Part shown: positions 2,983-64,000 of the stretch, piece after piece
Numbering within the stretch: position 1 is the stretch's first letter
How the letters are laid out: every line of letters begins with the position of its first letter
Virus record (IMG/VR): IMGVR_UViG_3300028549_003076
Location: 1 to 64,000 of that record
DNA: 64,000 nucleotides
Direction: 5' to 3' (one strand)
From: a virus
Translations under genes and position numbers: made by a program
The notes under the pieces: generated by a model
Seen by the model: the letters and a program-made list of their open reading frames with translations, nothing else
Told to the model about the DNA's origin: nothing
Databases searched by the model: none

Positions 2983-3693
2983 ATGGAGAATATCATAGAA
3001 AAAATCAAAAAATTAATCAAACATCAACAATCTGCTGAAAAGATAGGTTCATTGAATGAAGCAAATGCTTTTGCATCTAAAATTCAAAAAATGCTTAATG
3101 AATACAATCTATCTATGAAAGATATAACACTTGAAGAACTTGAAGAAAAAATAATACAAGATTTTATGTCTTGTAGAGTTCCGAGTGTTAGTAAAACATT
3201 AGGTTACTTTGTAATGTATCCTATTGCAAAATATAATTATTGTAGAATATATCTTGCTGGTGATAATATGTGTATTGTTGGAACAAAAGAAAACATAGAA
3301 GTTTGTAAATACATTTATGATTTTTGTTTAAATAATTTTGTTAGAATTGGAAAAGATGAATTCAAAAAAGAAAATTTACAAATTGGAGTAGATACTTATT
3401 TGAGAAATTTTCTTCAAGGTGCTGCGACTGGATTAGAATTAAAATTCAAAAATGAAAGAAAATTACAAGAAACAGAAAATCTAATTGAATCAGGAGTTTC
3501 AATGTCTCAAGTAGAAAATTCAACATCATGTCTATCATTAGTCATTCAGAAAAATGATAAAGCAGTTGCAAATTATGTTGAAAATAATATGTCAACTAAA
3601 AAAGGACGCTCAAAATCTATCAAAAAAGATGGTACATTTTTAAAAGGAGTTCAAGCAGGTCAAAACATTAAAATCAATAAAGCAATATCATGA
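2983..3693 (+). CDS. DUF2786-like protein
   Basis: The N-terminus IIEKIKKLIKHQQSAEKIGSLNEANAFASKIQKMLNEYNL matches the pattern I recall for DUF2786 (KI.KLL......NE.EA..A...Aq.L....n). Function unknown. Confidence 0.55.
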   Translation: MENIIEKIKKLIKHQQSAEKIGSLNEANAFASKIQKMLNEYNLSMKDITLEELEEKIIQDFMSCRVPSVSKTLGYFVMYPIAKYNYCRIYLAGDNMCIVGTKENIEVCKYIYDFCLNNFVRIGKDEFKKENLQIGVDTYLRNFLQGAATGLELKFKNERKLQETENLIESGVSMSQVENSTSCLSLVIQKNDKAVANYVENNMSTKKGRSKSIKKDGTFLKGVQAGQNIKINKAIS

Positions 3694-4303: not shown

Positions 4304-5146
4304 ATGTATCAAGGTGAAGACATAAAAGAAAATATTGCAGCAAGAAAACTTAACATCATCAAAGGTTTTGTTGAAACAGATGATATTCTTGAAAAGGCAG
4401 CTCAATCTAAACAAGTAGGGCAAACAAAAGTTGGTTCAGATGGAGTTACCAGAGTTTGGACTCAACTACCAAATGGTAAGTATGATTGGAGGAGAAAAAA
4501 AGCATCATCTGATGATAAAAAAGATGTTAAAAAAGATGAATCAAAAAAATCTCAAAAGGATGATTCAGACTCACCAAAAAATTCTAAACAAATTGGAGTT
4601 ACAAAATCAGGCAAAAAGATTTATGAAGATGGTTCAGAACATGAACAAGATGAAGATTGGACATCAAAAGACCATGAGGAGGCAGCTGAAGCACATCAAG
4701 TTTGGAGTTTAAACAGAACTCAAACAGTAGGTCAAAAAGTTTCAAATGCAGATTTAAGTAAAACATATTCAAAACATGTTGAAAAACAAAAAACAAAATC
4801 AACTTCAAAAAAAGATGATGTAAAATCTGATAATGATTTCAAACCTCACAAAAGTTTTGAAGGTGCAATGAAAACAAAAAGTAGTGCAAAATTTGTAAGT
4901 GCAGATGGAGAACATTGTCAAATATCAAGAGGTTACATTGGAAATAAGATAAGTATAATGGTTACATTTATGCAACCAAATAAAGATGTTGCATCTAAAC
5001 ATGCAATACGCTCATCTTCAGCAAATAAAATATTAAAATTTTTGAATGATAATAAATTCAAAAACGAGGATGATGTAAAGGAAAAAATTCAAAAATCATC
5101 TGACTCTCAAATACAAAAAGCAAAATCAATCTTAAATTTAGAATAA
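4304..5146 (+). CDS. highly charged Lys/Asp/Ser-rich protein with shared N-terminal leader and VGxTKV..DWRK module (possible head-internal/ejected protein)
   Basis: 280 aa. N-terminal LNIIKGFVETDDILEKA is paralogous to the 8606 ORF. VGQTKVGSDGVTRVWTQLPNGKYDWRRK is paralogous to the 19035 and 20477 ORFs. The C-terminus QKAKSILNLE resembles the 19035 C-terminus. Confidence 0.6.
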   Translation: MYQGEDIKENIAARKLNIIKGFVETDDILEKAAQSKQVGQTKVGSDGVTRVWTQLPNGKYDWRRKKASSDDKKDVKKDESKKSQKDDSDSPKNSKQIGVTKSGKKIYEDGSEHEQDEDWTSKDHEEAAEAHQVWSLNRTQTVGQKVSNADLSKTYSKHVEKQKTKSTSKKDDVKSDNDFKPHKSFEGAMKTKSSAKFVSADGEHCQISRGYIGNKISIMVTFMQPNKDVASKHAIRSSSANKILKFLNDNKFKNEDDVKEKIQKSSDSQIQKAKSILNLE

Positions 5147-5147
5147 T

Positions 5148-6485
5148 ATGTCACAATTAGGTTTAACATCAGAACAGTTTGGTAAAAGATTAAATATGGA
5201 ATTTTTTACCAACATAAACAAAGGACTTTCAGAAAGTGAATTTCAAAAATCATATCCTTCAGAAAATTTTGAAGTTTTTGAAAAAGGAATTGTTGAAAGT
5301 TGGATTAAAGAAACGTATGAATCAACAGGTGGTGAAATCATCAAAGGAGGGTTTAATGATATTGAAGAAGTTCATCAAGTTTTATTTAAAATGAGAGAAC
5401 AAGTTTCATTATTAAAAGGAGTTCTTGTTGAAGATAAAAATGGAGATATTCATGAATTATTTGTTTTAGAAAAATCAAAACAAAATGACGATGATTATAT
5501 TGAAAAGGGTCTGAAGTATCAAATTGGAACAATACATAATGGTTATAAAAAAGTTTCTGAAGGTAAATGGAGGAAAGTTTCATTTGAAGGAAAAACAAAA
5601 GAAGAACATGAGGAATCATTAAATTTTTACAAAAAAAGATTGTCTGAAAATAATAAAGAATACAAAAAATATGATAGTGAATCCATAAAGTCAGAAAAAA
5701 ACATGATAGATAATCTTGATGATAAAGAATATTCTGATGAAGAAAAAGAAAATTCTGATAAGAATAATCAAAAATTAAAAGTTGATGCTGTTAATTCTAT
5801 AATAGAGGAATCAGATGATCCTAAAAATTTTGATTTATCTGATTATGGTGTTGTAGAAAATGTTGAAGATGCTAAAAAATTAGTAAGAAGGCTTAGAAGT
5901 GATGTTAAAACTTTTATTGAAAATGGTGATAAATTTTACGCAAAAGAAACAAAAAATCTTGCTAATAAGATAGATTCTATTTTACAAAAATCTTATAGTA
6001 ATGATTTTGAAAAATCTCATAATGAATCAAATGATAGTTTTGAAAAAGGTGAAGTTACAGATTCTTTATACTATGGAGACAAATCACTAATGTTTTCAAA
6101 AACAGGTGCTGATATCAAAGTACAACTTGTTAAAGTAAAAGAAAAAGAAACAATAAATTTAGCTGATTTAAAATCTAAAATGAATTCAATTCTTGAAAAA
6201 CTCCCTTTTGCACCTACTGAAAAAAATAGTGATTGTGAAATTCAATCATTCAAATGGGAATTGACTTATGCAAAAGATAATTCAAATGTGGTTTCATTTA
6301 ATGATATGGAACAAGGTACAGTAACATCAGAACAATCAGAACTTTGCAGACAGTATAATGATATGGTTTGGAGTTACAGAGAATGTAAAAAAGAACTTGA
6401 TTCAATAAATTTACTTGAACAAAATCTTGATGACAAAAAATCTTATGAATTGTCTGCCAGACAAATGTTAGCATTTGGTTTTTAA
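5148..6485 (+). CDS. hypothetical charged protein
   Basis: 445 aa and Glu/Lys/Asp-rich. Weak copies of the shared motifs (IIKGGFNDIEE; IGTIHNGYKKVSEGKWRKV). Confidence 0.6.
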   Translation: MSQLGLTSEQFGKRLNMEFFTNINKGLSESEFQKSYPSENFEVFEKGIVESWIKETYESTGGEIIKGGFNDIEEVHQVLFKMREQVSLLKGVLVEDKNGDIHELFVLEKSKQNDDDYIEKGLKYQIGTIHNGYKKVSEGKWRKVSFEGKTKEEHEESLNFYKKRLSENNKEYKKYDSESIKSEKNMIDNLDDKEYSDEEKENSDKNNQKLKVDAVNSIIEESDDPKNFDLSDYGVVENVEDAKKLVRRLRSDVKTFIENGDKFYAKETKNLANKIDSILQKSYSNDFEKSHNESNDSFEKGEVTDSLYYGDKSLMFSKTGADIKVQLVKVKEKETINLADLKSKMNSILEKLPFAPTEKNSDCEIQSFKWELTYAKDNSNVVSFNDMEQGTVTSEQSELCRQYNDMVWSYRECKKELDSINLLEQNLDDKKSYELSARQMLAFGF

Positions 6486-7148: not shown

Positions 7149-7847
7149 ATGGGCAGAAAAAATTATGAACATTTATTACCACCTACAAGTGAAGATATAA
7201 ATGATGAAAATCTAAATTTATTTTTTTCATCAATGTTTGAAAGGCAAGAAATTTGGTACAAAAGATTTATTCTAAAACAACCAAGACCATGGACAAAAGA
7301 TAAAATATTTGAAGGAAAGTTTACAAATGTTTATCGTGAATTAGATAGACATAGTCAATGGCAAATTCAAAACATTTTTTTAGATAAAAGAAATGATAAA
7401 TTGAATTTAGTCTGGAAAATAATGTTATTCAGAATTTTCAATAAACCAGAGTTGTTTGAATTTATTAAAGGAATTTCAGGAGAATTTATACCAGATTATA
7501 AGGATTATGGTATTAATGTATTTGGAAGACTTGTTGAAAATTATAGAAATTCAGGTGAAAATCCATTCACTAATGCTTATTTGATAAACAGTCAAGCATG
7601 TCCAGGAGCAACAAGGGATTGGTGTTATATAAATAAAGTTGTTCCAACAATACATAAAGCAATACCAAGATTATTAGTATTATTTAAACAATCAAAAAAT
7701 CCTGAACAAATCATTGAAAAATTATTAGAACTTCCTTCAGTGGCAAATTTTATTGCTCATGAGTTTTATCAAGATTTTACATACATATCTATTTACACTG
7801 ATTTAGATATTTTCAAATTTGACCAAAATGATTTTACTAATGTTTGA
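7149..7847 (+). CDS. aGPT-Pplase-like DNA base hypermodification enzyme, N-terminal part (ends at in-frame TGA)
   Basis: ERQEIWYKRFILKQPRPWTKDKIFEGKFTNVYRELDRHSQW matches my recollection of the alpha-glutamyl/putrescinyl-thymine pyrophosphorylase family signature (PWT.D.I....F.NvYRE.DR.t.W). Confidence 0.6.
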   Translation: MGRKNYEHLLPPTSEDINDENLNLFFSSMFERQEIWYKRFILKQPRPWTKDKIFEGKFTNVYRELDRHSQWQIQNIFLDKRNDKLNLVWKIMLFRIFNKPELFEFIKGISGEFIPDYKDYGINVFGRLVENYRNSGENPFTNAYLINSQACPGATRDWCYINKVVPTIHKAIPRLLVLFKQSKNPEQIIEKLLELPSVANFIAHEFYQDFTYISIYTDLDIFKFDQNDFTNV

Positions 7848-7871
7848 CCAGGAGTAAAGGAAGGAATAAGA

Positions 7872-8135
7872 ATGATATTTCCAAATTTAGAAACAAATAA
7901 ACAACAAATTAAAGCAATACACTATTTACGTGATATTGCTGAGCAAAAACTATCTGATATTGGTGATTTTAAGTTTGTTAGTTGGTGTAAAAATAATAAT
8001 CAATATAAAGTTACTGATGAATGTAATATCACACTACATCAAATTGAAATGTGGCTTTGTGAATTTCAAAAATATTGGAAGATGAAACATAAAGTAGGTA
8101 AACAAAGAAGTGTGTTTGAACCCAAGACTATTTAA
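7872..8135 (+). CDS. aGPT-Pplase-like enzyme, C-terminal part (same frame as 7149-7847)
   Basis: Same reading frame as the upstream ORF. They are separated only by TGA (7845-7847) plus 8 sense codons. No independent promoter or RBS is evident. Confidence 0.5.
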   Translation: MIFPNLETNKQQIKAIHYLRDIAEQKLSDIGDFKFVSWCKNNNQYKVTDECNITLHQIEMWLCEFQKYWKMKHKVGKQRSVFEPKTI

Positions 8136-8190
8136 ACGGAATTATTAGTTTTCAGTTATTATTTATGAAAATAAAATAATTCATTTGATT

Positions 8191-8616
8191 ATGTCTATAA
8201 ATAAGCAAAAATATTATACTTTGATAAACCAAGATAATGATTCAATTTACATTATCTTGAAAACAATTCCTACAAATAGTTTTGAAGAAGTGATTAATAC
8301 AATAAACTTTTCAGATAATTTCAAAAAGTTTTCAATTGTAAATAATGATGATGAAGTTCAAATAGTTAAGTTAAAATTATTTGGAGCAGAAATTTTAGGA
8401 TATAGTGATGAAGAATTTGTTAAAGCACTAAAAAAAGATTTTGACAAAGCACTATTAAAATTCAACCAAATACTCAAAAAAAGAACAAAATCATTTGGAC
8501 TTGATAAATTCTCATTATCAGTAGGTCAAAATATTAATAATTTAGATGAAAAATTAGATGAATTTGCATCTGAATTTAATTACTCTGTTGGATTAATAGA
8601 TTTTAATGAACAATAA
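8191..8616 (+). CDS. hypothetical protein
   Basis: The ORF-track start at 8185 is TTG; the first ATG is at 8191. No motif recognised. Confidence 0.55.
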   Translation: MSINKQKYYTLINQDNDSIYIILKTIPTNSFEEVINTINFSDNFKKFSIVNNDDEVQIVKLKLFGAEILGYSDEEFVKALKKDFDKALLKFNQILKKRTKSFGLDKFSLSVGQNINNLDEKLDEFASEFNYSVGLIDFNEQ

Positions 8617-23177: not shown

Positions 23178-24698
23178 ATGTCAAAATTCAAATTTTATAC
23201 TCCTTTTGAACTTATTAAAGCCAAAGATAATTCTGGTAACACAGTTATGAAACTTGGCGGAATTGCTTCAACTATTGATGAAGATGCTGATGGGGAATAT
23301 CTTGACCCAGATGGGTTTGATGTTAATGACTTTTTAAAAGTAGGTTTTGTTAATTGGCATCACCAAGCAAAAAATAAACCAAAAACTATTGTAGGTGAAC
23401 CATCAAAAGCAGAAATTCGCAAAGATGGTTTTTATGTAGAAACTACTTTATATCCTTCATCAGATACTGCTAATGAAATTTATGAACTTGCTCAAATTCT
23501 TGAAAAAGATAGTAAAACAAGGAGATTAGGTTACAGTATTGAAGGTGATGTTGTTGAAAGAGGAAGTGATGATAAAACTCATCCTGATTATAAAAAAATC
23601 AAAAAAGCTGTAATTACAGGATTAGCAATTACACATATGCCTAAAAATCCTAAAACTTTTGCTCAAATAATAAAAGGTCATGTTGAAGAAGATGAAGAAG
23701 ACAATGAAGATGATATTGAAAAAACTTTAACAACTGAAAATTCTGGTGGAATAGCAAAAGAGTCATTAAACAAAGAATTGAAAGTTCAAGTCAATAAAGG
23801 TTTTTCAATAGTTGAATTATCAGATGAAAAAATGTATGACAAGATATTTGATACATTTACAGATATAAATATTGAGAAAGCAGAGAAAGTTTTTAAATTA
23901 ATTTCAAAAGTACGTTCAGATATGAAACAAAATGTAAATGAGGATAAACTCAATAAAGCCATGGATGCTTTAGGATTAAGTGTCGATGAAAATAATCCTT
24001 TTTTAATTAAAGGAAAATCATCTGAAGATGATGATGAAAACGATGATAAAGGCAAAAAATATCAAAAAATTGCTGACAAAATTCAAAAAGAAAATTATGA
24101 TGATGAATCAGACAAAGATGATGATTCAGAGTCAGATGAAGATGATTCAAAAGAAGTTAAGAAATCAAAAGATGCTGATAAAATCTTAAAATCACTTGAA
24201 GGAAACAAAGGTTTGTATTTACTTATTGATAAAAAAATTGAAAAAGCAATTTCTCAATCTTCAAAAGAAAATTCAGCACTTGGAGTTTTAACATCTTCAT
24301 TACTTGAAGAAAACAGTTTATTAAAAGGTCATATTGAAAATCAATCTTCAATGCTTGAAAGACAATTTGAAGTAATTAATGAACAAAATGAATTAATTAA
24401 AGGCATTGTTGAAAAAATGGAGAGTTTTGGAAGTACTCCTGCTCCAAGAAAATCAATAGTGAAAGGTTTTTCAGAAAAAGAAAGTTTTTCAAAAGGTGTT
24501 GAAAATACAAATGGAAATGTTTTAAGCATTTCTCAAAACAAACATCAAATTCTTGAAATACTTGACCAAAAAACTTTTGCAAAAGGTTTTGATGAAGAAA
24601 TGTCAAAGGCAACAACAGGTTTTGAATCATCAAATACTTTGCCATCTAATGTAATTCAAAGATTAAGATTAGAAGACAATATAACGATAACTCAGTAA
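23178..24698 (+). CDS. prohead protease fused to scaffold-like acidic coiled-coil region
   Basis: The N-terminal ~170 aa fits HK97-type prohead protease (LGGIASTIDEDADGEYL..., VNWHH, LGYSIEG, ITGLAITHMPKNPKT). The remainder is Asp/Glu/Lys-rich and helical. Sits immediately upstream of the capsid gene. Confidence 0.75.
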   Translation: MSKFKFYTPFELIKAKDNSGNTVMKLGGIASTIDEDADGEYLDPDGFDVNDFLKVGFVNWHHQAKNKPKTIVGEPSKAEIRKDGFYVETTLYPSSDTANEIYELAQILEKDSKTRRLGYSIEGDVVERGSDDKTHPDYKKIKKAVITGLAITHMPKNPKTFAQIIKGHVEEDEEDNEDDIEKTLTTENSGGIAKESLNKELKVQVNKGFSIVELSDEKMYDKIFDTFTDINIEKAEKVFKLISKVRSDMKQNVNEDKLNKAMDALGLSVDENNPFLIKGKSSEDDDENDDKGKKYQKIADKIQKENYDDESDKDDDSESDEDDSKEVKKSKDADKILKSLEGNKGLYLLIDKKIEKAISQSSKENSALGVLTSSLLEENSLLKGHIENQSSMLERQFEVINEQNELIKGIVEKMESFGSTPAPRKSIVKGFSEKESFSKGVENTNGNVLSISQNKHQILEILDQKTFAKGFDEEMSKATTGFESSNTLPSNVIQRLRLEDNITITQ

Positions 24699-24720: not shown

Positions 24721-26205
24721 ATGAATCCAGGATTAAATTTGCAAGATTATGCAAAAGCAGCTGCCAACGTGCCATCAGCTGTTTTTGGTGGTTCATCTAT
24801 GGATGAGCTTAATCAATTACAAAAAGCACTGGAGGCAGGTTCAATCACAGGTAGGGAGACCACTGGGATGGGCAATGCGTCTGGAGCACCTTTGAAAGTT
24901 GAAAGTTTAGATAAAAACTTAAAACATTTGACTTTCAATGAAGAAGACATCAAATTGTGGAAAATGATTCCTAAAAAAGCAGCATACAATACTGTTGAGG
25001 AATACAACCAATTAGTTGATTATGGTCAACAAAGAGGTGGTTTTTACAATGAAGGAGAACTTCCAAATGAAGAGGAAAGTCAATACATGAGAAAAGCACA
25101 ATTAGTGAAATTCATGGGGGTTGTGAAATCTGTTACTCACCCTATGACTTTGGTAAACACTAATGTTGGTAACATCATTGACCGTGAAATCAAGAATGGA
25201 ACACTTTGGATTTTGAGACAATTAAACAAATCATTGTATTTTGGTGATGAAAGTTTAGTTCCTCAAGAATTTAATGGATTCATTGCTCAACATCAAAAAA
25301 ATTCTGGTTTCACTGATTTAGATAGTTACTTCAATTCAGATGTTGTAATTGATTGTAGAGGTGAACAACTTCAAGAAAAATACATTGAAGATGCTGCTAA
25401 TGGTATTATTCAAAACTTTGGATTAGGAAACCAATTATTCGCTCCACCAAAAGTTTTATCAAACTTTGTTAAAAACTTTTATGGTAACAAATTTATTCAG
25501 CCAAATTCTAATCAAGTTGCTGCTGGTGTAATGGGTCAAAGAGTTAAGGAATTTGAATCTCAATTCGGTAACATTGGTTTAAATTGGGATATTTTCTTTA
25601 ACAAGAAACCATCAAGAAAAGTTGTAAATGGACCAACATCTCAACTTGCTCCAAATGCACCTACATTAGCTGCTGTAACATCAGTACCTACTGATGCTTC
25701 AAGTAGATTTGTAGCAGACGATGCTGGAGATTATTTATATGCAGTAGCAGCTGTAAATAGATATGGTGAAACTGTTATTGTTCCATTTGCTACTCCATTA
25801 ACAGTTGTTTCTGGCGGTGCAGTTGATGTACAAGTTACAGATGGTGGTGGAATTAATCCTGCTACATCTTATGTAGTTTACAGAACTAAAAAAGGTGTTA
25901 CTGATACTGCTGCTGAATTTTATCCTTTGTTTACTATTTCAAAACAAGAATTAATAAACGGATATGATGGTGCTGCTCAAGGTAGTTTGAGAGACAAAAA
26001 CAGATGGTTGCCGGATACAGATCAAGCGATTTTATTCCAAATGAATAATGAAGTGATTGAGTTTGCTCAACTTGCTCCACTTATGAAAATGGATTTAGCA
26101 TTACTTGCTCCGTCTTATAGATTTATGATTTTACTTTATGGTACTCCATTCTTATATGCTCCTAAAAAGATGGTAAGAATTGTTAACATAGGTGAAAAAC
26201 TGTAA
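24721..26205 (+). CDS. major capsid protein
   Basis: 494 aa, directly after the protease-scaffold gene. Less AT-skewed codon usage than its neighbours, and followed by a strong terminator. The fold cannot be verified by eye. Confidence 0.8.
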   Translation: MNPGLNLQDYAKAAANVPSAVFGGSSMDELNQLQKALEAGSITGRETTGMGNASGAPLKVESLDKNLKHLTFNEEDIKLWKMIPKKAAYNTVEEYNQLVDYGQQRGGFYNEGELPNEEESQYMRKAQLVKFMGVVKSVTHPMTLVNTNVGNIIDREIKNGTLWILRQLNKSLYFGDESLVPQEFNGFIAQHQKNSGFTDLDSYFNSDVVIDCRGEQLQEKYIEDAANGIIQNFGLGNQLFAPPKVLSNFVKNFYGNKFIQPNSNQVAAGVMGQRVKEFESQFGNIGLNWDIFFNKKPSRKVVNGPTSQLAPNAPTLAAVTSVPTDASSRFVADDAGDYLYAVAAVNRYGETVIVPFATPLTVVSGGAVDVQVTDGGGINPATSYVVYRTKKGVTDTAAEFYPLFTISKQELINGYDGAAQGSLRDKNRWLPDTDQAILFQMNNEVIEFAQLAPLMKMDLALLAPSYRFMILLYGTPFLYAPKKMVRIVNIGEKL

Positions 26206-28303: not shown

Positions 28304-29087
28304 TTTAAACATAGATGAGTTAATACAAGAATTTAACTTGCCAACAAATACTGGCGATTATATTGTTGCGTCTTGTGTTGATTCAGTTACTCAGGAGATT
28401 TATAGGAATTGGCAATTAGAAGCAAGTAATGCCTTAAATTCAACCAGAAATGAGTATATAAACAATCTTCAAATCATAGATAATTCAAAATATAATAAAA
28501 CTATATTATTGACAGGAAAATTACCAAACATGCTTGAAAAAGGAATTTCTGCTTTTGATATGAAAGAAGGATTCAAAAAATCAAACAAAGTAAAATATTC
28601 AGTCAAAACAGATAAAAATGGAAAAACTACTTTTAGTTGGTATTTAACAATTCCATTCAGAATAGGTACTCCTGGAATTGTTGGTGAAAATGCTGCTTTT
28701 AGTGGAATTATGCCTCAAGAAGTTTATGATATTGTTAAGCAATTTTCAAAAAATCAATCTTTAAATAAAAGAGATATTCCATCACCATTCAATGTTCCAA
28801 GAAGTCGTGCTGCAATAGTTTTACCAACAAGAACAATTCCAGAATATAGACACAAGTCAAGTATTTATGATGGATTGACTAAAAAATCTTCAGCATATGG
28901 TAATTCAATACAAAATTATTATATGACTTTTAGGAGAGTTAGTGAAAATTCTGACCCAAATTCTTGGATTCATAAAGGAATTCAAGCACACAATCTAATG
29001 AAAAAAGCAGTATCTGCTACTGATGTTCAAATGATTGTTGATAATAATGTTGACAAAATACTTTCAAATTTAGGTTATGGTAAATAA
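28293..29087 (+). CDS. virion structural protein (connector/neck region)
   Basis: 264-aa ORF overlapping both neighbours. No motif recognised. Confidence 0.55.
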   Translation: MTIDLNIDELIQEFNLPTNTGDYIVASCVDSVTQEIYRNWQLEASNALNSTRNEYINNLQIIDNSKYNKTILLTGKLPNMLEKGISAFDMKEGFKKSNKVKYSVKTDKNGKTTFSWYLTIPFRIGTPGIVGENAAFSGIMPQEVYDIVKQFSKNQSLNKRDIPSPFNVPRSRAAIVLPTRTIPEYRHKSSIYDGLTKKSSAYGNSIQNYYMTFRRVSENSDPNSWIHKGIQAHNLMKKAVSATDVQMIVDNNVDKILSNLGYGK

Positions 29088-29769
29088 TGCAATTTTAATG
29101 CCAGATGTAATAATTTACAAAACATTGAAATCAATTTTCAATATTGTAAAAAAAGATTATGATGATGCACCAGATAAGGAAAAAACAATACTTTATGATA
29201 TATTTGGCAAAGATGAAAATGATAATGTTTTAGAATTTGAAACATTCAATTATTTCAACCAAGCAGTAGAAATTTTTGTATTAAAACAACCTCAAATAAA
29301 TATTGGATACAATATGGAAGTGTCTGCTATGGGTTGTGTACATATACTTTTACCAAGTGAAACTGGAAAAGATTTAAACATAGGAGCATCTGAAAATTAT
29401 CAAGATTATGATGAAGATGGAGAAGATGTTGATGGAAATCCTACAAGATATAAAGAAATTTACAATCAGATGTATGATACAACTTATAACTTAATGATAA
29501 CATCAGAAAACACTTTTGAAGTTATTTTAATTTACAATTTATTAAAAGCATCTTTTATAGCATTAAATGCACATATTGAACTTGCTGGTTTACGTTTGCC
29601 AAAAGTTAGTGGTCAAGATGTTAATATTCAATCTGATTTAGTACCTACTCACATATTCCATAGAAGTTTAATGTTGAATTTTCAATATGAGTGTAATGTA
29701 AGTGATTTTTTTTACAAAACTATGGTAAGGAATTTTAACATAACAGGTATTATAATTTCAAATCCTTAA
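29077..29769 (+). CDS. virion structural protein (connector/tail-terminator region)
   Basis: 230-aa ORF upstream of the sheath gene. No motif recognised. Confidence 0.55.
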   Translation: MVNNAILMPDVIIYKTLKSIFNIVKKDYDDAPDKEKTILYDIFGKDENDNVLEFETFNYFNQAVEIFVLKQPQINIGYNMEVSAMGCVHILLPSETGKDLNIGASENYQDYDEDGEDVDGNPTRYKEIYNQMYDTTYNLMITSENTFEVILIYNLLKASFIALNAHIELAGLRLPKVSGQDVNIQSDLVPTHIFHRSLMLNFQYECNVSDFFYKTMVRNFNITGIIISNP

Positions 29770-56009: not shown

Positions 56010-57179
56010 ATGAAATATCAAATTGTTAACAATTCAGGTCAAGTTGAAAATTTTTCAAAATTTTATCCATATCTTAATAAATTTTTATTTGAGAATGGAG
56101 ATTTTGTTGAAAGTAGAAATGGTAATACAAAAGAAGTTTTAAATTTCAAAACAGAAGTTTTGAATCCATATAAAAGATGCGTTGGTAATAATGAAAGAAA
56201 TATTAATATTTTCTTTTTACTTGCTGAAGCAATGTGGATTTGGACAGGGAAAAAAGATGTAAAATTTTTAGAAATTTTTAATACTCAAATGAAGGAATAT
56301 TCAGATGATGGTAAAAATTTTCATGCTCCTTATGGTTTTAGAATGAGACATTATGGTGTATCATCATTTGATAACATTAGACCTACAAATGAAGAAAATA
56401 ATCATGCAGTGAGTCAATTAACCACTGGAATAGACCAAATTGAACTATCACTTGAAGAATTAAATAAAAATCCTGAGTCAAGGAGAGTTGTAATTTCAAT
56501 TTGGAATGCTGAATTAGATTTATGTAAAATATCAAAAGATTTACCATGTAATGATTTATTGATGTTGAAAATAAGAAATGGTAAATTACATTCAACAATA
56601 TCAAATAGGAGTAATGATTTACATTGGGGATTACCTACAAATATTTTCCAATTCAGTTTTGTTACAGAAATCATGACAAAAATTCTTGGTATTGAATTAG
56701 GTACTCAAACTCACAATTCACAATCACTACATTTTTATTTAGAAAATCCAATTGCTGATAATATGTATTCAAATATTCAAATTCAGCCAAACTTTACAGA
56801 TTTGTATGATATTTCTGAACCTTTGAAAATTGATATGAACTTTTTTGATTGCTTAACAATTCAACAAAAAATAAAAAAAGTAGATTATTTCATGAATTTA
56901 ATAATAAATTCAATATTGAATGATGAAAAGATTGAAACAATAAAAATAGGTGAATTAAAAAACTTTTCAAGTTATTTGCTTTTTGTTTATCATTTACTTT
57001 GGATTTATAAGGATTATAAGTTTTCTAAAAAAACTGATGTTTTGAGAGCAAAAAATATTCAAGCAATCAAAGAAATTTTTTCAAATGATTTTGGAGGTAC
57101 TGATATTTATACATTAGCACTTAATTTTTTTGCATCAAAGTTAGAAAATAATAATGATAACATAATTGGAAAATTGTAA
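56010..57179 (+). CDS. thymidylate synthase (ThyA) family enzyme, dUMP-type pocket, with ~140-aa C-terminal extension (candidate dUMP hydroxymethylase)
   Basis: NPESRRVVISIWN, catalytic Cys in DLPCNDLLMLK, NRSNDLHWGLPTNIFQF (Asn at the position that is Asp in dCMP hydroxymethylases), SQSLHFYLEN. Confidence 0.7.
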   Translation: MKYQIVNNSGQVENFSKFYPYLNKFLFENGDFVESRNGNTKEVLNFKTEVLNPYKRCVGNNERNINIFFLLAEAMWIWTGKKDVKFLEIFNTQMKEYSDDGKNFHAPYGFRMRHYGVSSFDNIRPTNEENNHAVSQLTTGIDQIELSLEELNKNPESRRVVISIWNAELDLCKISKDLPCNDLLMLKIRNGKLHSTISNRSNDLHWGLPTNIFQFSFVTEIMTKILGIELGTQTHNSQSLHFYLENPIADNMYSNIQIQPNFTDLYDISEPLKIDMNFFDCLTIQQKIKKVDYFMNLIINSILNDEKIETIKIGELKNFSSYLLFVYHLLWIYKDYKFSKKTDVLRAKNIQAIKEIFSNDFGGTDIYTLALNFFASKLENNNDNIIGKL

Positions 57180-58369
57180 TGGGTGATTTGCAAAAATGGA
57201 TTGATAAAAATAATATAATTTGCCAAAATGAAGATGGGTTAATAACTATTGAGAATTTTGGCAAATTCTTATTTATACAAGAAAAAAATGGTAAAATAAT
57301 CAGTGATGATTATTCAATAATTTTAACAGATGATGAGTTTGATTTTATTGAAGAAAATAAAATTGAATTTGTATTATTTAAGTGGGGAACAAGATTTTAT
57401 TATTGTGAAACTTCAAAAAGAAAAAAGAATGAATATAATGAAGAAGTAATAATACCAAAATTTAATAATTTTAGAAATATTGGAAATTATGAATCAAACT
57501 TTAAAGAAATTGATTTTGTAAACCTATCAATACATACAGGATATGAGCTACTTAATGGAAGTGGTGATGCTCAAGATTATGTAAATAAAGCATATTTTTT
57601 TAAACAAAAAAGTTTAGCAATTTCTGAAAAAAATACATTAGCAGGAACTTTATCATTTCAATTATCTTGTGATAAAAAAGGAATAAAATCAATACTTGGA
57701 CAAACAATAACTGTTGCTTATAATTATAATGAAAAAGATGAACATCATGATTTATATGAATTAAAATTATATGTAAAAGATAAAACAGGTTGGCAAAATT
57801 TATTGAGAATATCAAAACAAATAAATGTAGATTTTGCTTCATTCATACCTTTTGATAATTTAAAAAATCATACAAAAGGTTTAATTTGCGTTATTCCTTT
57901 TGATAGTTATTTTAACAAAAATATTGAAAACAAAAAATCAAAAATAGAATTAAAGAAACTTCAAGAACTTTATGATGAATGTTTCTATCAGATTGATTTT
58001 ACAGAATTTAATGATGACTCATTAGATATTGAAAGATTGAATAAAATAAAGTATTATTTTAACAATTATTATAAAAAAATACAACCTGTATATATTGAAG
58101 ATGTTTTTTATGTTGACTCAATAGATAGTGATGTAAAGTCATTATTAAATAAAGTTGATAGGAAAGCAATACCATCATCAAAAAATCAATATTTAAAATC
58201 TATTGATGAAATCATTGAAAAATACTATGATCTATTCAGTGATGAAAATAATAATATATCAAAATTTTTCAAATCAATAAATAATACAAAAAAATATCTG
58301 AACTTTGTAATTTTAGAATTGATACTGGAAATCATAAATTACCAAAATTTGAAGTTGAAGACACTTTGA
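57179..58369 (+). CDS. dnaE: DNA polymerase III alpha (DnaE-type), N-terminal part: novel ~110-aa extension + degenerate PHP domain
   Basis: FVNLSIHTGYELLNG aligns with the DnaE PHP start (FvHLHvHS.YSlLDG) but lacks the HxH histidines. The ORF loses homology after ...NNTKK at the A7 tract. Confidence 0.75.
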   Translation: MGDLQKWIDKNNIICQNEDGLITIENFGKFLFIQEKNGKIISDDYSIILTDDEFDFIEENKIEFVLFKWGTRFYYCETSKRKKNEYNEEVIIPKFNNFRNIGNYESNFKEIDFVNLSIHTGYELLNGSGDAQDYVNKAYFFKQKSLAISEKNTLAGTLSFQLSCDKKGIKSILGQTITVAYNYNEKDEHHDLYELKLYVKDKTGWQNLLRISKQINVDFASFIPFDNLKNHTKGLICVIPFDSYFNKNIENKKSKIELKKLQELYDECFYQIDFTEFNDDSLDIERLNKIKYYFNNYYKKIQPVYIEDVFYVDSIDSDVKSLLNKVDRKAIPSSKNQYLKSIDEIIEKYYDLFSDENNNISKFFKSINNTKKYLNFVILELILEIINYQNLKLKTL

Positions 58370-60747
58370 AACTTTATAGTGAATTAGTTGAGGATGGTTT
58401 CAATAGGAAAGTAAAAAATGAATTCAAAGGTGATAAAGAAAAAATAAAACTTTACAGAGCAAGACTTGATGAAGAGAATGATGTAATTGTAGGTGCAGGA
58501 TTTGTTGATTATTTCTTAATACTTTGGGATATTATCAAATGGGCAAAGGAAAGTGATATATTAGTTGGGCCAGGACGTGGTTCTGTGGGTGGTTGTTTGA
58601 TTGCTTATTTATTAGATATAATAGAGATTGACCCAATCCAATATAATCTTTTATTTGAGCGTTTTTTAAATAAAACAAGGGTGAGTGGTGAAAGAGCAAA
58701 AGCAGCTGATTCACTTCCAGATATTGATATTGACTTTGAAGGAAGTAGAAGACAAGATGTGAAAAGATATATTGAACAAAAATACGGTTTAAATTTTGTT
58801 TGTTCAATTGGGACGTATGCAAGACTGAAAACAAAATCAGCAATAAAAGATTTTGCACGTGTAAAAGGATTAGATTTTCAAAAAGTTAATTTTGCAACAC
58901 GTGAGATACCAGATGATGTAGATTATGATTGGTCAGATTTATTTACAAATGGTTTAAAGAAAAAAGTTTTAAAAGACTTTGTTCAGGAAAATGTTGATAT
59001 TTGTGAAATAATGAAAGCACCACTTGGACAACCACGTTCATCTTCAATACACCCATCAGCAGTAATCATAGTTCCAAAACAAGATGAAGATGGAAATGAA
59101 GTTGAGATTTACGATTGGATGCCAATAAAGAAAATTGATGGACAAATTGTTTCAGAGTGGGAAGGAAAATATATAGACAGAGCAGGTTTTTTGAAGGAAG
59201 ATATTCTTGGTATAGCACAACTTGATAAATTTAGATATATTTTAAATTTAATTCATGAAAATTATAATGAAAAAATAAACTTAAATAAAATTCCTATTTA
59301 TGATGAAAAGGTTTTTGAGTATTTTTCAAATGGTTGGAATGAAGATGTTTTTCAATTTGGAACTTATGGTTTGAAAAGTTATTCAATCAGAGTGAAGCCA
59401 GACAATATTGAAGATTTAATTTCAATGAATGCTTTGTTTCGTCCTGGCCCAATGGATTCAAAAGCACATGATACTTTTGTTGAAATAAGGAGAGGAAAAA
59501 AGAAACCAGAGTTTGATTATGGCTTAAAAGAAGTTACAAAAAACACTATGGGGTTGTATATCTATCAAGAGCAAGTAATGCAAGCAGTACATGTTCTTGG
59601 TAAATTAACATTATCTGAAGCAGATGAATTAAGAACTGCAATCAAAAAATTTGACAAAGTAAAAATGCAATCAGCAATGGAGAAATTTCTTCAAGGTGCT
59701 CAAGATAATGGTTGTTCATTAAAGGAGGCAAATAAAATATGGGACAAATTAAATGCTTTCAGTAGTTATGGTTTTAATAGGTCACACGCTGCTGCATATT
59801 CATTAATGGGTTATTGGAGTCAATGGTTAAAAGTACATTATCCTTTGGAATTTTTTACAGCAAGTTTAAATTTTGCTGATGAAAAAATTGAAATTCCAAA
59901 TAGAATTTCTGAAATAAAGAAAATAAGAAATGGAATAAAAGTTGCTGGTGCTGATATTAATAAGTCAGACATAAGATTTACATCAGACATAAATTTAAAG
60001 AAAATTTATTGGTCACTTACAAAAATAAAATTTGTTGGTGAGGTTGCTGTTAAAGTTATTCTTGAGGAAAGAAAAAATGGAAACTTTTTTTCAATTGAAG
60101 AATTTTACAAAAGGATAAATAAAACAAAAGTTAATAAAAAAACAATGTTGTGTTTAATACTTGCTGGAGCATTTGATGAGGTAGGTAGTGAAAATGTTTC
60201 TATGGAAAATCACAACAAACCAAGAAATAGATACAATTTATTGAAAGCATTTTTTGATTTAAGAAACGAAAAAATTCCTGATGATATTGAGAATGATAAG
60301 TATAAAAACATGAATTGGTTTTGGATAAAAAGACAAAAGGAATTAACAGGTCATGGCGATATTGACTATAAAATTTTAGTTAGAAAAAAATGGCCAAATG
60401 AAAAATTTGCATCAAAAATGTATATTGATGGAGATGATTTTACAAATAAAGTTTTAGAAAAAACTGAATCAAGAAAAGTGATATTAGCAGGAGTAATTTT
60501 TTCTTTAAAAAAGAAAATGTCTAAAAATGGAGAATATGCTTTGATTGAATTACAATGTAATAATTCAATAATAATTGTACATCTTTGGAATGATTATTGG
60601 GACAATAAAAAATTCAAATCAAAGTTATTAGAATTGGAAATAAATAAAAAAATGTTTGCAATATCTGGAGTTATGAAATTTGATAGTTGGAAAAACAAAA
60701 ATGTTTGTTTTGTAGATGATGAAACAAAAATAATAGATTTAATATGA
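58366..60747 (+). CDS. dnaE: DNA polymerase III alpha (DnaE-type), polymerase core and C-terminal domains
   Basis: GFVDYFLILWDIIKWAKESDILVGPGRGSVGGCLIAYLLDIIEIDPIQYNLLFERFLN...LPDIDIDF and FNRSHAAAYS are hallmark DnaE motifs. Homology in this frame already begins at 58294 (ISELCNFRIDTGNHKLPKF), upstream of any start codon. Confidence 0.9.
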   Translation: MKLYSELVEDGFNRKVKNEFKGDKEKIKLYRARLDEENDVIVGAGFVDYFLILWDIIKWAKESDILVGPGRGSVGGCLIAYLLDIIEIDPIQYNLLFERFLNKTRVSGERAKAADSLPDIDIDFEGSRRQDVKRYIEQKYGLNFVCSIGTYARLKTKSAIKDFARVKGLDFQKVNFATREIPDDVDYDWSDLFTNGLKKKVLKDFVQENVDICEIMKAPLGQPRSSSIHPSAVIIVPKQDEDGNEVEIYDWMPIKKIDGQIVSEWEGKYIDRAGFLKEDILGIAQLDKFRYILNLIHENYNEKINLNKIPIYDEKVFEYFSNGWNEDVFQFGTYGLKSYSIRVKPDNIEDLISMNALFRPGPMDSKAHDTFVEIRRGKKKPEFDYGLKEVTKNTMGLYIYQEQVMQAVHVLGKLTLSEADELRTAIKKFDKVKMQSAMEKFLQGAQDNGCSLKEANKIWDKLNAFSSYGFNRSHAAAYSLMGYWSQWLKVHYPLEFFTASLNFADEKIEIPNRISEIKKIRNGIKVAGADINKSDIRFTSDINLKKIYWSLTKIKFVGEVAVKVILEERKNGNFFSIEEFYKRINKTKVNKKTMLCLILAGAFDEVGSENVSMENHNKPRNRYNLLKAFFDLRNEKIPDDIENDKYKNMNWFWIKRQKELTGHGDIDYKILVRKKWPNEKFASKMYIDGDDFTNKVLEKTESRKVILAGVIFSLKKKMSKNGEYALIELQCNNSIIIVHLWNDYWDNKKFKSKLLELEINKKMFAISGVMKFDSWKNKNVCFVDDETKIIDLI

Positions 60748-61340
60748 AAAATTTTTTTAGTGAAATACTTTTTGACCAAGATTTTGACCAATTAAATAAT
60801 ATGGTTAGATGGAATGGTGTTAATAGGATAAAAGATGAAACTGTTGCTCATCATTCATTTATGGTTACTTGGTTTACAAGATTAATAGTTGAAGAAGTAT
60901 TTACAGATAATACTCCAAAACTTATAGCGACAACTTATTCAATATTTCATGATTTTGATGAAATATTTACAGGTGATATTTTACATACATTAAAGTATAA
61001 TGATATAAATGGAGAGCAAATAAAAAATGAATTAGATTTATATTTAAAAAGTAGAATTAACCACAAATTTCCAATCAATACAACCAAAACTAATGATTTA
61101 TTGAATAATACTTTACTAAAAAAAGATATACCAATATACATATCTAAAATAGTGAAAATTTCGGATTGGTTATCAATGCAATTTTATCTTCAAAAGGAAA
61201 TTGATTTAGGTAACAGAAGTGTTATTCCTTTAAGGGAATATTGTATTGAGCAATTAAAAAAATCAATACAAAGTTGTTTAGTTGAATTAGAAAATCAAAA
61301 TGAATATATTGTTAATTTAAAAATCTTTAAAAATGAGTGA
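60744..61340 (+). CDS. HD-domain 5'-deoxynucleotidase (YfbR-like)
   Basis: RWNGVNRIKDETVAHHSFMV ... IFHDFDEIFTGDILHTLKY parallels E. coli YfbR (RW......EnVsEHS..VA...mYHDasEvltGDlPtPvKY). Confidence 0.65.
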   Translation: MKNFFSEILFDQDFDQLNNMVRWNGVNRIKDETVAHHSFMVTWFTRLIVEEVFTDNTPKLIATTYSIFHDFDEIFTGDILHTLKYNDINGEQIKNELDLYLKSRINHKFPINTTKTNDLLNNTLLKKDIPIYISKIVKISDWLSMQFYLQKEIDLGNRSVIPLREYCIEQLKKSIQSCLVELENQNEYIVNLKIFKNE

Positions 61341-63413: not shown

Positions 63414-64000
63414 ATGAAAGGTATTATTGAAAAATTAGTTAGTAAATTCAATTCAGATGATGCTGTAAAATTTTCTGAAAAGGATAATTTTAAAGAAAAT
63501 AAAAGTTGGGCATCGACTGGTTGTCCAGAACTTGAATACAATCTTGGCATACTTGGTTTACCAACAGGAATAATTGAAATCGCAGGAGTATCACGCTCTG
63601 GTAAAACAACACTTGGACTTGTTGCAATGTCAAATTTCTTAAAAAAGGAAAAGGATGGTATTGCAATTATACTATCATCTGAAAATCGTGATAATAAGGA
63701 TTATGCTGTCAGATTAGGAATTGACCCAGAACGTGTAATGATTTTGAAAATTAGATATGTTGAAGACATGTTTATGAAAGTTAAAAAAATAATTACAGAC
63801 ACAAAAGATATTTTTCAATCTGAAAAACTTGGAACTCCAAAATTCTTTTTTCTTTGGGACAGTTTAGGTGCAACACTATCAAAAGCAGAACTTGACACTA
63901 TGGAAGAAAATACAGACATGATGGAAAAGAAAATGGCAAAAGGTGAAGAATTAGAAAAAATGAAACATGAAAAATTAGGAGCATTTGCTAAACCAGCAAA
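63414..64000 (+). CDS. RecA/UvsX-like recombinase (5' partial, continues beyond the window)
   Basis: My own translation from the ATG at 63414: ...LGLPTGIIEIAGVSRSGKTTLGLVAM...FFFLWDSLGATLSKAELD. This parallels the RecA Walker A and B regions. No stop before nt 64000. Confidence 0.75.
   Translation, partial: MKGIIEKLVSKFNSDDAVKFSEKDNFKENKSWASTGCPELEYNLGILGLPTGIIEIAGVSRSGKTTLGLVAMSNFLKKEKDGIAIILSSENRDNKDYAVRLGIDPERVMILKIRYVEDMFMKVKKIITDTKDIFQSEKLGTPKFFFLWDSLGATLSKAELDTMEENTDMMEKKMAKGEELEKMKHEKLGAFAKPA

Follow-up and report, generated by a model that had tools for sequence, protein, structure and literature searches.

The window analyzed here, a 64,000-nucleotide stretch of a virus genome (IMG/VR record IMGVR_UViG_3300028549_003076, positions 1 to 64,000), carries a gene of aGPT-Pplase clade 1 whose reading frame is broken by a single TGA at codon 233. 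We consider it probable, at roughly 0.55, that this TGA is a strain-private, non-programmed G>T substitution that is real in the phage population and constitutes a null allele, very recent in origin, of a conserved gene that is otherwise intact.

A clade 1 gene interrupted at codon 233

A check of the ORFs and their translations placed 7149–7847 and 7872–8135 in one common frame with the TGA at 7845–7847 as the sole break, exactly as the sequence-only reading had described. The ATG-initiated ORF at 7149–7847 encodes 232 amino acids and stops at this TGA (context gtt TGA cca), which is followed by eight sense codons (PGVKEGIR), an ATG at 7872, and an open continuation of this frame as far as the TAA at 8133–8135. 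The conceptual fusion of both ORFs comprises 328 amino acids, and the gene is laid out as follows.

7149–7844, plus strand: codons 1–232 of the PF18723 gene, translated ahead of the stop (ORF and translation; identical to residues 1–232 of the sister protein P0124)
7845–7847, plus strand: in-frame TGA, codon 233 (GGA in both sister assemblies, GGT in the relative L001)
7848–8135, plus strand: codons 234–328 and the TAA (8133–8135), the predicted untranslated remainder of the domain (identical to P0124 residues 234–328)

The motif PRPWTKDKIF..KFTNVYRELDRHSQW was found in the NH2-terminal part and LHQIEMWLCEFQKYWK in the COOH-terminal part. The region 7848–8135 contains the 87-amino acid ORF called by the ORF finder (7872–8135) and holds the rest of the GPG(A/V) motif as well as the invariant Cys304-Glu305 within LHQIEMWLCEFQKYWK.

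The fusion matched the Pfam profile PF18723 (HMUDK_hel) with 165.4 bits (E 2.3e-48; curated gathering cut-off, 25 bits) over profile positions 4–277 of 281, across the TGA. Codons 1–232 alone matched positions 4–202 of 281 (E 7e-34), the COOH-terminal part alone matched positions 215–278, and an intact relative 91% identical to the fusion (P0001) scored 172 bits. Hundreds of homologues of 325–375 amino acids lack any interruption, and the relatives recovered in one metagenome scan were at most 60% identical. The continuous match to one profile and the uninterrupted homologues argue, far beyond chance, that both ORFs are parts of a single gene, and the COOH-terminal part is the remainder of the same domain, as the sequence-only reading had supposed. 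That reading had also named an arrangement that would speak against it, namely homologues that end naturally at this position; we found none, with a single uninterrupted ORF present in the sisters and in all of the at least 160 related loci and broken only in the window gene.

No Pfam profile bearing the name aGPT-Pplase matches the fusion. Clade 1 and clade 2 were reportedly first grouped together as aGPT-Pplases by Iyer et al. in 2013. GenBank proteins labeled aGPT-Pplase1 matched PF18723 only, and those labeled aGPT-Pplase2 matched PF18724 (ADDT) only: the PAC6 "aGPT-Pplase1 domain-containing protein," the Nachito "aGPT-pyrophosphorylase clade 1," and the COOH-terminal half of SP10 gp186 belong to the former set, and PAC6 "aGPT-Pplase2" to the latter. 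SP10 gp186C, whose domain is PF18723 like that of the window gene, is given as aG/PT-PPlase1 in Table 3 of Lee et al. 2018 (PMC5889632). On these profile matches, PF18723 "HMUDK_hel" and the aGPT-Pplase clade 1 of the literature and GenBank are the same family, so that the earlier assignment of the gene to the aGPT-Pplase lineage holds. The accompanying claim of an experimental link to thymidine hypermodification stands for the lineage but not for the gene, given that the chemistry has been shown for clade 2 (M6 gp51, ViI gp247, PhiW-14 gp109, and PaMx11 gp46; PMC8989533) and that the window gene, judged by the same matches, is clade 1 and not one of the proven clade 2 transferases (PF18724). 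PF18724 gave no match even at E ≤ 10 for the NH2-terminal part, the COOH-terminal part, or P0001, and an hhalign comparison of the window family profile with the PAC6 clade 2 protein was not significant (probability 0.1). In the published literature on aGPT-Pplases, we found no demonstration of activity for clade 1.

The AlphaFold model of the protein (pLDDT 92) was almost wholly helical and formed one compact domain. In this model, G233 caps helix 234–243, C304 and E305 lie in the last helix, and the part after the stop covers helices 234–243, 250–271, and 296–313 together with a beta hairpin. A sequence search against the PDB matched zero chains, and the closest folds in a Foldseek search of the PDB were HhH-GPD glycosylases, none of them significant (best E 0.26, TM 0.36/0.52). 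According to the model, truncation removes about the last third (~30%) of the single compact domain, including the Gly-Pro-Gly helix cap and Cys304-Glu305; with this loss, the truncated product would almost certainly be inactive.

Origin of the TGA

A sister genome was obtained from two independent assemblies, JGI 3300033564 (an 86,491-bp contig) and Logan SRR21758069, and it is 99.96% identical to the whole window. In both assemblies the sister protein P0124 has Gly at position 233, encoded by GGA, and is identical to the fusion at the other 327 residues, so the comparison with related genomes that the sequence-only reading proposed marks the TGA as private. The Pfam alignment, also proposed there, spans the TGA, and homologues carry Gly at that point: Gly occupied the TGA column in 164 of 164 homologous HSPs, Gly233 was invariant in both of the alignments inspected (A1 and A3), and G233, P234, G235, C304, and E305 were invariant across 52 diverse sequences. 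All family-invariant columns are kept in the fusion except G233, which is the stop codon, and P0124 keeps every one. A relative 91% identical to the window gene (L001) has GGT at codon 233. As reconstructed from these sequences, the ancestral codon is GGA, and the TGA arose by one G>T at 7845.

The window differs from the JGI sister at 26 sites across its whole length, comprising 25 substitutions and 1 indel, or, by effect, 11 synonymous, 13 nonsynonymous, 1 nonsense, and 1 frameshift change. We take the window to represent a genuinely distinct strain, with real SNPs far more numerous than plausible miscalls; with 13 nonsynonymous against 11 synonymous changes, purifying selection appears not to have purged mildly deleterious variants yet. 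One of the differences is S110L in the baseplate J protein. GC>AT changes account for 16 of the 25 substitutions and G:C>T:A for 4 of the 5 transversions, a spectrum that the G>T at 7845 fits. Downstream of the TGA there are zero further stops, indels, or private amino acid changes relative to P0124; with the rest of the gene free of decay, the lesion appears to be very young. A236V was considered as decay after inactivation and was rejected, given that the intact sister allele carries the same Val.

The other gene-breaking difference lies in the replicative polymerase gene.

58288–58294, plus strand: A7 run in dnaE (57179–60747); A8 in both sister assemblies, A7 here

The A8>A7 frameshift splits Pol III alpha into two frames and is the second gene-breaking lesion private to the window contig. 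An intron, an intein, and a conserved programmed frameshift were each rejected as the cause of the split, there being zero insertion, a single ORF in relatives and sisters, and A8 in the sisters. Such a change in an essential gene is hard to accept as the majority allele of a viable phage, and at least one consensus error in the assembly is therefore plausible. Besides these two lesions, no frame break or internal stop was found in ~44 kb of homology-covered sequence.

In the reading that we favor, a G>T at 7845 would have turned GGA (Gly) into TGA in the phage population itself, translation would end after residue 232, and the product would be inactive. The intact protein would act on 5-hmdU-containing phage DNA, and loss of the gene would be tolerated, DNA-modification genes of this type probably being accessory. 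That the change exists in the phage, and is no miscall, is our inference. By portal, the nearest cultured relative is Chryseobacterium phage MA9V-3, which lacks the gene entirely, an absence that fits a dispensable gene; the conservation of the gene in more than 160 related loci weakens the case for a real allele, since a gene so conserved is normally under selection. A base-call or consensus error, with the strain truly GGA, the gene intact, and the TGA present only in the assembled contig, is a serious possibility that we nonetheless hold to be somewhat short of probable. The two changes that break genes relative to the sisters are both private to the window contig, the truncated 232- and 87-amino acid products occur on that contig only, and the Gly that was hit is invariant in a gene otherwise perfectly conserved. 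The A8>A7 change is one of homopolymer length, a classic class of artifact, in a polymerase in which it is implausible as a fixed allele, and the G>T duplicates the preceding base (GTTG>GTTT), copying of the preceding base being typical also of sequencing phasing errors. On the other hand, the assembly is otherwise accurate, with only 1 of 109 A/T runs of at least 7 bases differing in length from the sister and the ~44 kb of homology-covered sequence intact elsewhere; the remaining 24 differences resemble real strain variation; and we estimate that a random miscall would create a stop only ~5% of the time, whereas the at least 24 real SNPs offer more opportunities. Of the three options raised by the sequence-only reading, recent nonsense mutation and base-call error thus both remain, and programmed readthrough falls away.

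Deliberate production of the full-length protein by reading through the UGA, whether by a leaky UGA-C, a Gly or Trp suppressor, or a code 25 or code 4 host, is very unlikely. In E. coli, no stop context terminates more weakly than UGA with C as the next base; the frame past the TGA stays open with full conservation, and the interrupted codon corresponds to Gly, as which UGA is read in genetic code 25. The likeness to programmed UGA recoding (UGA-C readthrough, selenocysteine, codes 4 and 25) ends with the in-frame UGA-C and the conserved open frame, however, in that the stop is not conserved in the sisters and no SECIS-like structure, opal-suppressor tRNA, or other in-frame TGA was found. The codon is GGA in the 99.96%-identical sisters, GGT in L001, and Gly in all 164 homologous HSPs, and near-cognate readthrough of UGA inserts Trp, Cys, or Arg rather than Gly, so it would place one of these at an invariant Gly; together these observations effectively refute programmed readthrough. 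Nor does a TGA at a Gly codon support code 25, given that 15–16% of TGA-creating SNPs were computed to land on GGA codons by chance. The TGA at 7845 is the only mid-gene in-frame TGA among ~20,000 codons, 16 genes end in TGA, six of these overlapping the ATG of the next gene as ATGA, and, on the coding strand, homology to relatives runs through no further internal stop. Global recoding (code 4 or 25) was rejected on these grounds, in agreement with the sequence-only reading, which had taken TGA as a genuine stop elsewhere. Apparent readthrough homology at 3691/3718 was dismissed as BLAST extension into a low-complexity Lys-rich tail. Selenocysteine was likewise rejected: homologues carry Gly at the site instead of Cys, and the TGA is not followed by a hairpin, the 90 nt that start with it having an MFE of –3.6 kcal/mol (z +0.74; 153 of 200 shuffles fold at least equally well). 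No tRNA was found in the window, and no opal-suppressor tRNA in ~81 kb of the sister genome, in which the only tRNA has a 6-nt GACUAA loop with CUA and not UCA.

We give even less credence to a two-piece enzyme, in which translation would stop at the TGA and reinitiate at ATG 7872, with the 232- and 87-amino acid fragments reassembling into an active protein. This ATG lies 24 nt downstream and is preceded by the SD-like, purine-rich AAGGAAGGA, and the public record calls both ORFs as separate genes; yet the purine tract and the ATG are conserved coding sequence (KEGIRM) that is present also in intact relatives, zero homologues are split at the site, the pieces would lack residues 233–241 including the invariant G-P-G, and the break would fall inside what is modeled as a compact single domain. 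There is only the slightest chance that the TGA is real but silent because the host, belonging to a code 25 lineage or carrying an opal suppressor that inserts Gly, translates UGA as glycine and so restores Gly233. In such a host, the TGA "stops" of the phage would run on for a few codons to the next TAA or TAG.

Genomic context and comparison with known systems

The window gene is situated among small genes upstream of the portal. Two other genes of possible relevance to its pathway were identified.

56010–57179, plus strand: thymidylate synthase (TS) homologue, 389 amino acids (Pfam Thymidylat_synt, E 4e-26; PHROG 5131, E 1e-70)
60744–61340, plus strand: HD-domain YfbR-like 5'-deoxynucleotidase (Pfam PF12917, E 2e-16)

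The TS homologue adjoins dnaE, shares 33% identity with the TS of PAC6, an M6-like phage, and is a candidate dUMP hydroxymethylase for the upstream step of the pathway; the deoxynucleotidase may be a nucleotide-pool partner. A scan of 50 window proteins, a tblastn search of the window, and a small kinase HMM run on ~81 of the 86.5 kb of the sister genome detected no 5-hmdU DNA kinase (PF18748), and no clade 2 transferase was detected in the window or in the same ~81 of 86.5 kb.

The clade 1 proteins SP10 gp186 (COOH-terminal domain), XAI94750 (the gene at the gp55 position of M6-like phages such as PAC6), and UXR28902 (Bacillus phage Nachito) are 24–31% identical to the window protein over ~90% of its length and share an all-alpha domain of the same size; ViI gp160 and PhiW-14 gp72 have also been listed in clade 1 (Lee et al. 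2018, PMC5889632). Like the clade 1 phages, the window genome has a TS homologue beside the DNA polymerase, but its clade 1 gene is interrupted by TGA and lies 48 kb from TS rather than adjoining it. In SP10, Nachito, and M6-like phages a kinase is fused to the domain or encoded nearby (adjoining in PAC6, separated by one small gene in Nachito), whereas none was found in the window.

AADT corresponds to aGPT-Pplase clade 2 and to PF18724 "ADDT," and includes M6 gp51, ViI gp247, PhiW-14 gp109, PaMx11 gp46/PUGT, and Pplase2 of YuA and 15599. Both clades are described as all-alpha, HhH-containing, and glycosylase-like (PMC11472151, PMC13458397). Activity on 5-PmdU DNA has been proven for clade 2, whose conserved Cys with an adjacent Glu is essential (PMC8989533). 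The invariant, adjacent C304-E305 of clade 1 may be analogous to this pair, although it did not align to the clade 2 dyad. M6 gp55 is dispensable for formation of N-alpha-GlyT in vitro (PMC8989533). The top 50 Foldseek matches listed for the PDB included no clade 2 structure. HhH-GPD glycosylases (MjOgg 3knt/3fhf, AGOG, OGG1, and Endonuclease III) were the best yet weak structural neighbors, with a TM of 0.52 normalized to MjOgg, E values all >0.1, ~10% identity, and a window protein ~100 residues larger. These weak neighbors agree with the assignment by Phyre2 and Aravind that is quoted in PMC5889632.

Pelagiphages of the HTVC023P type carry TS, aG/PT-PPlase1, and a 5'-deoxynucleotidase with no 5-HMUDK kinase reported (PMC9599517), and the same three gene families are present in the window genome. 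These pelagiphages are small podoviruses in which the three genes cluster near PolA, whereas the window, part of an 86,629-bp contig, belongs to an 86-kb phage with a SPO1-type portal, a DnaE polymerase, and dispersed genes. The clade 1 gene is strongly conserved in a large, widespread group of phages of roughly 85–100 kb with SPO1-type portals, in which a TS homologue, a dCMP deaminase, a dUTPase-family enzyme, and an HD nucleotidase accompany it and neither a 5-hmdU DNA kinase nor a clade 2 transferase was recognizable.

Implications

Being a private single-base lesion, the TGA should not be catalogued as programmed readthrough, and the gene should be annotated as a pseudogene or possible sequencing error, as should the split dnaE. 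The more useful by-products of the analysis are the equivalence of PF18723 with clade 1 and the recognition of a phage group that carries the clade 1 gene and in which, with ~81 of the 86.5 kb of the sister genome covered, a kinase was not recognized. Should the null allele be real, the TGA and GGA sister strains, 99.96% identical, would provide a ready-made isogenic comparison for the role of clade 1 on phage DNA.

Family identity of the interrupted gene

The sequence-only reading had described two same-frame ORFs split by a single TGA, and their coordinates and sequence were confirmed exactly:

7149–7847, + strand: N-part ORF (232 amino acids), ATG start, ending at TGA 7845–7847 (context gtt TGA cca)
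7872–8135, + strand: C-part, ATG at 7872, TAA at 8133–8135, in the frame of the N-part, with 8 sense codons (PGVKEGIR) between TGA and ATG

The conceptual 328-residue fusion of both parts matched one Pfam family, PF18723 "HMUDK_hel" (5-hmdU DNA kinase, helical domain; E = 2.3e-48), over profile positions 4–277 of 281 and continuously across the TGA. Searched singly, the halves covered positions 4–202 (N-part) and 215–278 (C-part), so that the C-part is the rest of the same domain, as had been proposed. No Pfam profile bearing the name aGPT-Pplase matched, even at E ≤ 10, which, judged from Pfam scans of named phage proteins, is a naming matter within the same family. The "aGPT-Pplase1 domain-containing protein" of the M6-like phage PAC6 matched PF18723 only, its "aGPT-Pplase2" gene matched PF18724 "ADDT" only, and the "aGPT-pyrophosphorylase clade 1" protein of Bacillus phage Nachito corresponded to PF18723. 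SP10 gp186, a validated 5-hmdU DNA kinase, consists of an N-terminal P-loop kinase (PF18748) fused to a C-terminal PF18723 domain, and "gp186C" is given as aG/PT-PPlase1 in Lee et al. 2018 (PMC5889632). Given that this naming equates aGPT-Pplase1 with PF18723, the earlier family assignment was essentially right and holds for clade 1, whereas the experimental work concerns clade 2.

Clade 2 proteins (M6 gp51, ViI gp247, PhiW-14 gp109 and PaMx11 gp46) have been renamed amino acid:DNA transferases (PMC8989533, PMC11472151, PMC13458397). M6 gp55, in the clade 1 position, was not needed for the reconstituted first steps (PMC8989533), and we found no activity assigned to clade 1. The clade numbers of M6 gp51 and gp55 are swapped between Table 3 of PMC5889632 and Table 1 of PMC8989533; Pfam scans of the PAC6 orthologues favour gp51-like proteins as clade 2 (PF18724) and gp55-like proteins as clade 1 (PF18723).

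The residue under the stop and the predicted protein

In homologue alignments of 17 and 52 sequences, the codon replaced by TGA encodes an invariant Gly, part of the motif FTNV-G-P-G-A. When every ORF of all fetched relatives was compared with the window by tblastn, all 164 HSPs spanning 7845 held Gly, and homology crossed no further internal coding-strand stop in the ~44 kb covered. The codon is GGT in the 91%-identical relative L001. AlphaFold2 modeling of the 91%-identical relative P0001 from 52 homologues gave a confident structure (pLDDT 92, pTM 0.89). The model is a single compact domain, helical almost throughout, in which G233 caps helix 234–243, followed by helices 250–271 and 296–313 and a beta hairpin. 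The adjacent residues C304 and E305, invariant in the homologue alignment, lie in the final helix. They resemble the Cys and Glu that are essential in clade 2 (PMC8989533), a likeness that we infer, as the clades could not be aligned. A stop after residue 232 deletes ~30% of the domain, C304-E305 included, and because of this loss the truncated product is predicted to be inactive. Foldseek returned no significant structural neighbours in the PDB; its top weak matches were HhH-GPD glycosylases (MjOgg, TM 0.52), in agreement with published fold assignments (PMC5889632).

At residues ~105–135 (window ~7460–7555), three homologues (P0002, P0122 and P0123), a sub-lineage nearly identical outside this stretch, hold a wholly different segment that is 12 residues longer (…EKMTFEADDVGYDFGFMGLMPNYNKYNKELFGELIEMYRE…), a pattern suggestive of mosaic recombination within a loop on the domain's surface.

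Sister genomes and the origin of the TGA

Exact-sequence cluster look-up identified a 328-residue protein equal to the fusion at all other residues, including the lineage-specific Val236, with Gly at residue 233. Its gene lies on an 86,491-bp JGI contig (sample 3300033564) and, in an independent assembly, on Logan contigs of SRR21758069; both assemblies read GGA at the TGA codon. Tiled with four loci from the JGI contig, the whole window showed 99.96% identity, with 25 substitutions and one indel over its 64,000 bases. The window and the JGI contig are thus two strains of one phage, and on this comparison the TGA is a private one-base change.

Differences between the window and the JGI sister contig
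Synonymous: 11
Nonsynonymous: 13
Nonsense, 7845 G>T: 1
One-base deletion, A8>A7 at 58288–58294: 1

Nearly half of these differences lie in two clusters. Six substitutions within 135 nt (24046–24180), a hot spot of strain variation, include five nonsynonymous changes (G>D, K>E, N>D, D>E and Q>K), four of which gain acidic or lose basic charge; six more at 29154–29544 (gene 29077–29769) comprise four synonymous changes, E31A and I64V. The first cluster lies in:

23178–24698: structural-region protein gene, directly preceding the gene for the SU10-type major capsid protein (24721–26205)

The window has 26.8% G+C, with nearly every gene on the + strand. When all frames were read with TAA and TAG as the only stops, 7845 was the sole mid-gene TGA in ~20,000 codons; the remaining TGAs of long ORFs either closed a gene or preceded a start, and in six cases (3690, 3926, 38606, 41627, 43166 and 60744) the TGA stop shared an ATGA with the start of the following gene. 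TGA is therefore an ordinary stop in this genome, and global recoding is excluded, as the sequence-only reading had held. No in-frame TAG was seen among the window's genes.

That reading had also offered programmed readthrough, by which UGA would be decoded and full-length protein made. This very improbable option is refuted by the absence of the stop from genomes only 0.04% diverged and from all other relatives, which leaves it no evolutionary history as a signal. The 90 nt that begin with the TGA are unstructured (MFE −3.6 kcal/mol, z +0.74) and thus hold no SECIS or readthrough stimulator. Near-cognate UGA readthrough inserts Trp, Cys or Arg, and would place one of these at the invariant Gly. 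Homologues carry neither Cys nor Trp there. The match of Gly to UGA in code 25 is weak evidence, given that GGA is the origin in 15–16% of single-base routes to TGA in this gene and genome. No tRNA genes were found in the window, and the sole tRNA in ~81 kb of the sister genome has an unusual 6-nt anticodon loop, GACUAA, that contains CUA and lacks UCA. This tRNA (4736–4807 of the sister locus L177; Rfam, 57 bits; two-base anticodon by ARAGORN) is directly followed by a permuted tmRNA (4823–5152; RF04321, 50 bits; tag GKVVNLFNNPVQAAA), the pair lying outside the window, ~4.9 kb upstream of its start. A tmRNA is also annotated in Chryseobacterium phage MA9V-3.

The interruption is, by these comparisons, an ordinary private lesion rather than a recoding signal, and both the nonsense mutation and the base-call error suggested earlier still have to be weighed. 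We favour a real null allele of the clade 1 gene (probability roughly 55%), in which G>T at 7845 would have turned GGA (Gly233) into TGA in this strain. The 24 genuine strain SNPs far exceed plausible miscalls, the assembly was right at 108 of 109 long A/T runs, and G>T fits the GC>AT-biased spectrum, with G:C>T:A accounting for four of five transversions. The nonsynonymous-to-synonymous count of 13:11 indicates that deleterious variants have not yet been purged by selection. The related cultured phage MA9V-3 is without the gene, which suggests that it is accessory. A consensus error, with the gene intact in the actual strain, is a substantial but less probable explanation: the G>T duplicates the preceding T's, truncated products are recorded on this contig alone, and the same contig carries a second private gene-breaking difference, in dnaE. 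That the two fragments work together as a functional split protein seems the least probable reading of all.

57179–60747, + strand: dnaE (Pol III alpha), in two frames here, with a one-base deletion in the A-run 58288–58294

The dnaE run reads ACA AAA AAA TAT in the window and A8 in both sister assemblies, where the essential Pol III alpha is one 1189-residue ORF; it is also a single ORF in more distant relatives, and the A7 lesion is not conserved. Slippage by −1 at the A_AAA_AAA heptamer would give back precisely the wild-type protein, so the lesion may reflect a base miscall, a genuine but leaky mutation or heterogeneity in the population.

Genomic context of the clade 1 gene

The portal is SPO1-type (top GenBank match MA9V-3, 46% identity), and the sister gene calls include an SU10-type major capsid protein. 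Genes relevant to nucleotide metabolism and the window's 3' end are:

56010–57179, + strand: thymidylate-synthase homologue (389 amino acids), adjoining dnaE
60744–61340, + strand: HD 5'-deoxynucleotidase
63426–64000, running off the 3' end: RecA/UvsX-like recombinase ORF (Walker A GVSRSGKTT)
L177 1073–1519 and 3588–4599: dCMP deaminase and dUTPase/DCD enzyme region of the sister genome

The dCMP deaminase and dUTPase/DCD-family enzyme lie just upstream of the window, together with a weak 2OG-Fe(II) oxygenase match. The sister counterpart of the recombinase is a 360-residue RecA_N protein; SbcCD-like genes and a UvrD helicase come after it. Directly 3' of the clade 1 gene, the 91%-identical relative (L001 1313–1513 versus window 8136–8330) has, in place of the window's 141-residue ORF, a different gene (start MKIAIIGLGYVGLPLAVEL) with a Rossmann-type nucleotide-sugar dehydrogenase-like N-terminus, a gene-content swap at the junction.

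The nucleotide-metabolism genes form a putative thymidine-replacement toolkit and point to SPO1-style replacement of thymidine by 5-hmdU, with the thymidylate-synthase homologue as candidate hydroxymethylase. SP10 DNA carries alpha-glutamylthymidine. Given that SP10 has clade 1 and no detected clade 2 (Lee 2018 Table 3, PMC5889632), clade 1 itself is plausibly a group transferase or base-flipping enzyme on 5-hmdU DNA. HTVC023P-type pelagiphages are reported to have the same trio of thymidylate synthase, PPlase1 and 5'-deoxynucleotidase as this phage (PMC9599517). Neither a 5-HMUDK kinase (PF18748) nor a clade 2 transferase (PF18724) could be detected, either in the window or in the ~81 kb covered of the 86.5-kb sister genome, and of at least 160 related loci only two had ORFs with weak kinase resemblance no more than 10 kb from the clade 1 gene. 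Over this span the setting, unlike those of M6, ViI and SP10, is kinase-less, and the conserved, kinase-less clade 1 context is the point of modest interest. If the allele is real, the window and its sister would form a natural near-isogenic strain pair with and without the gene.
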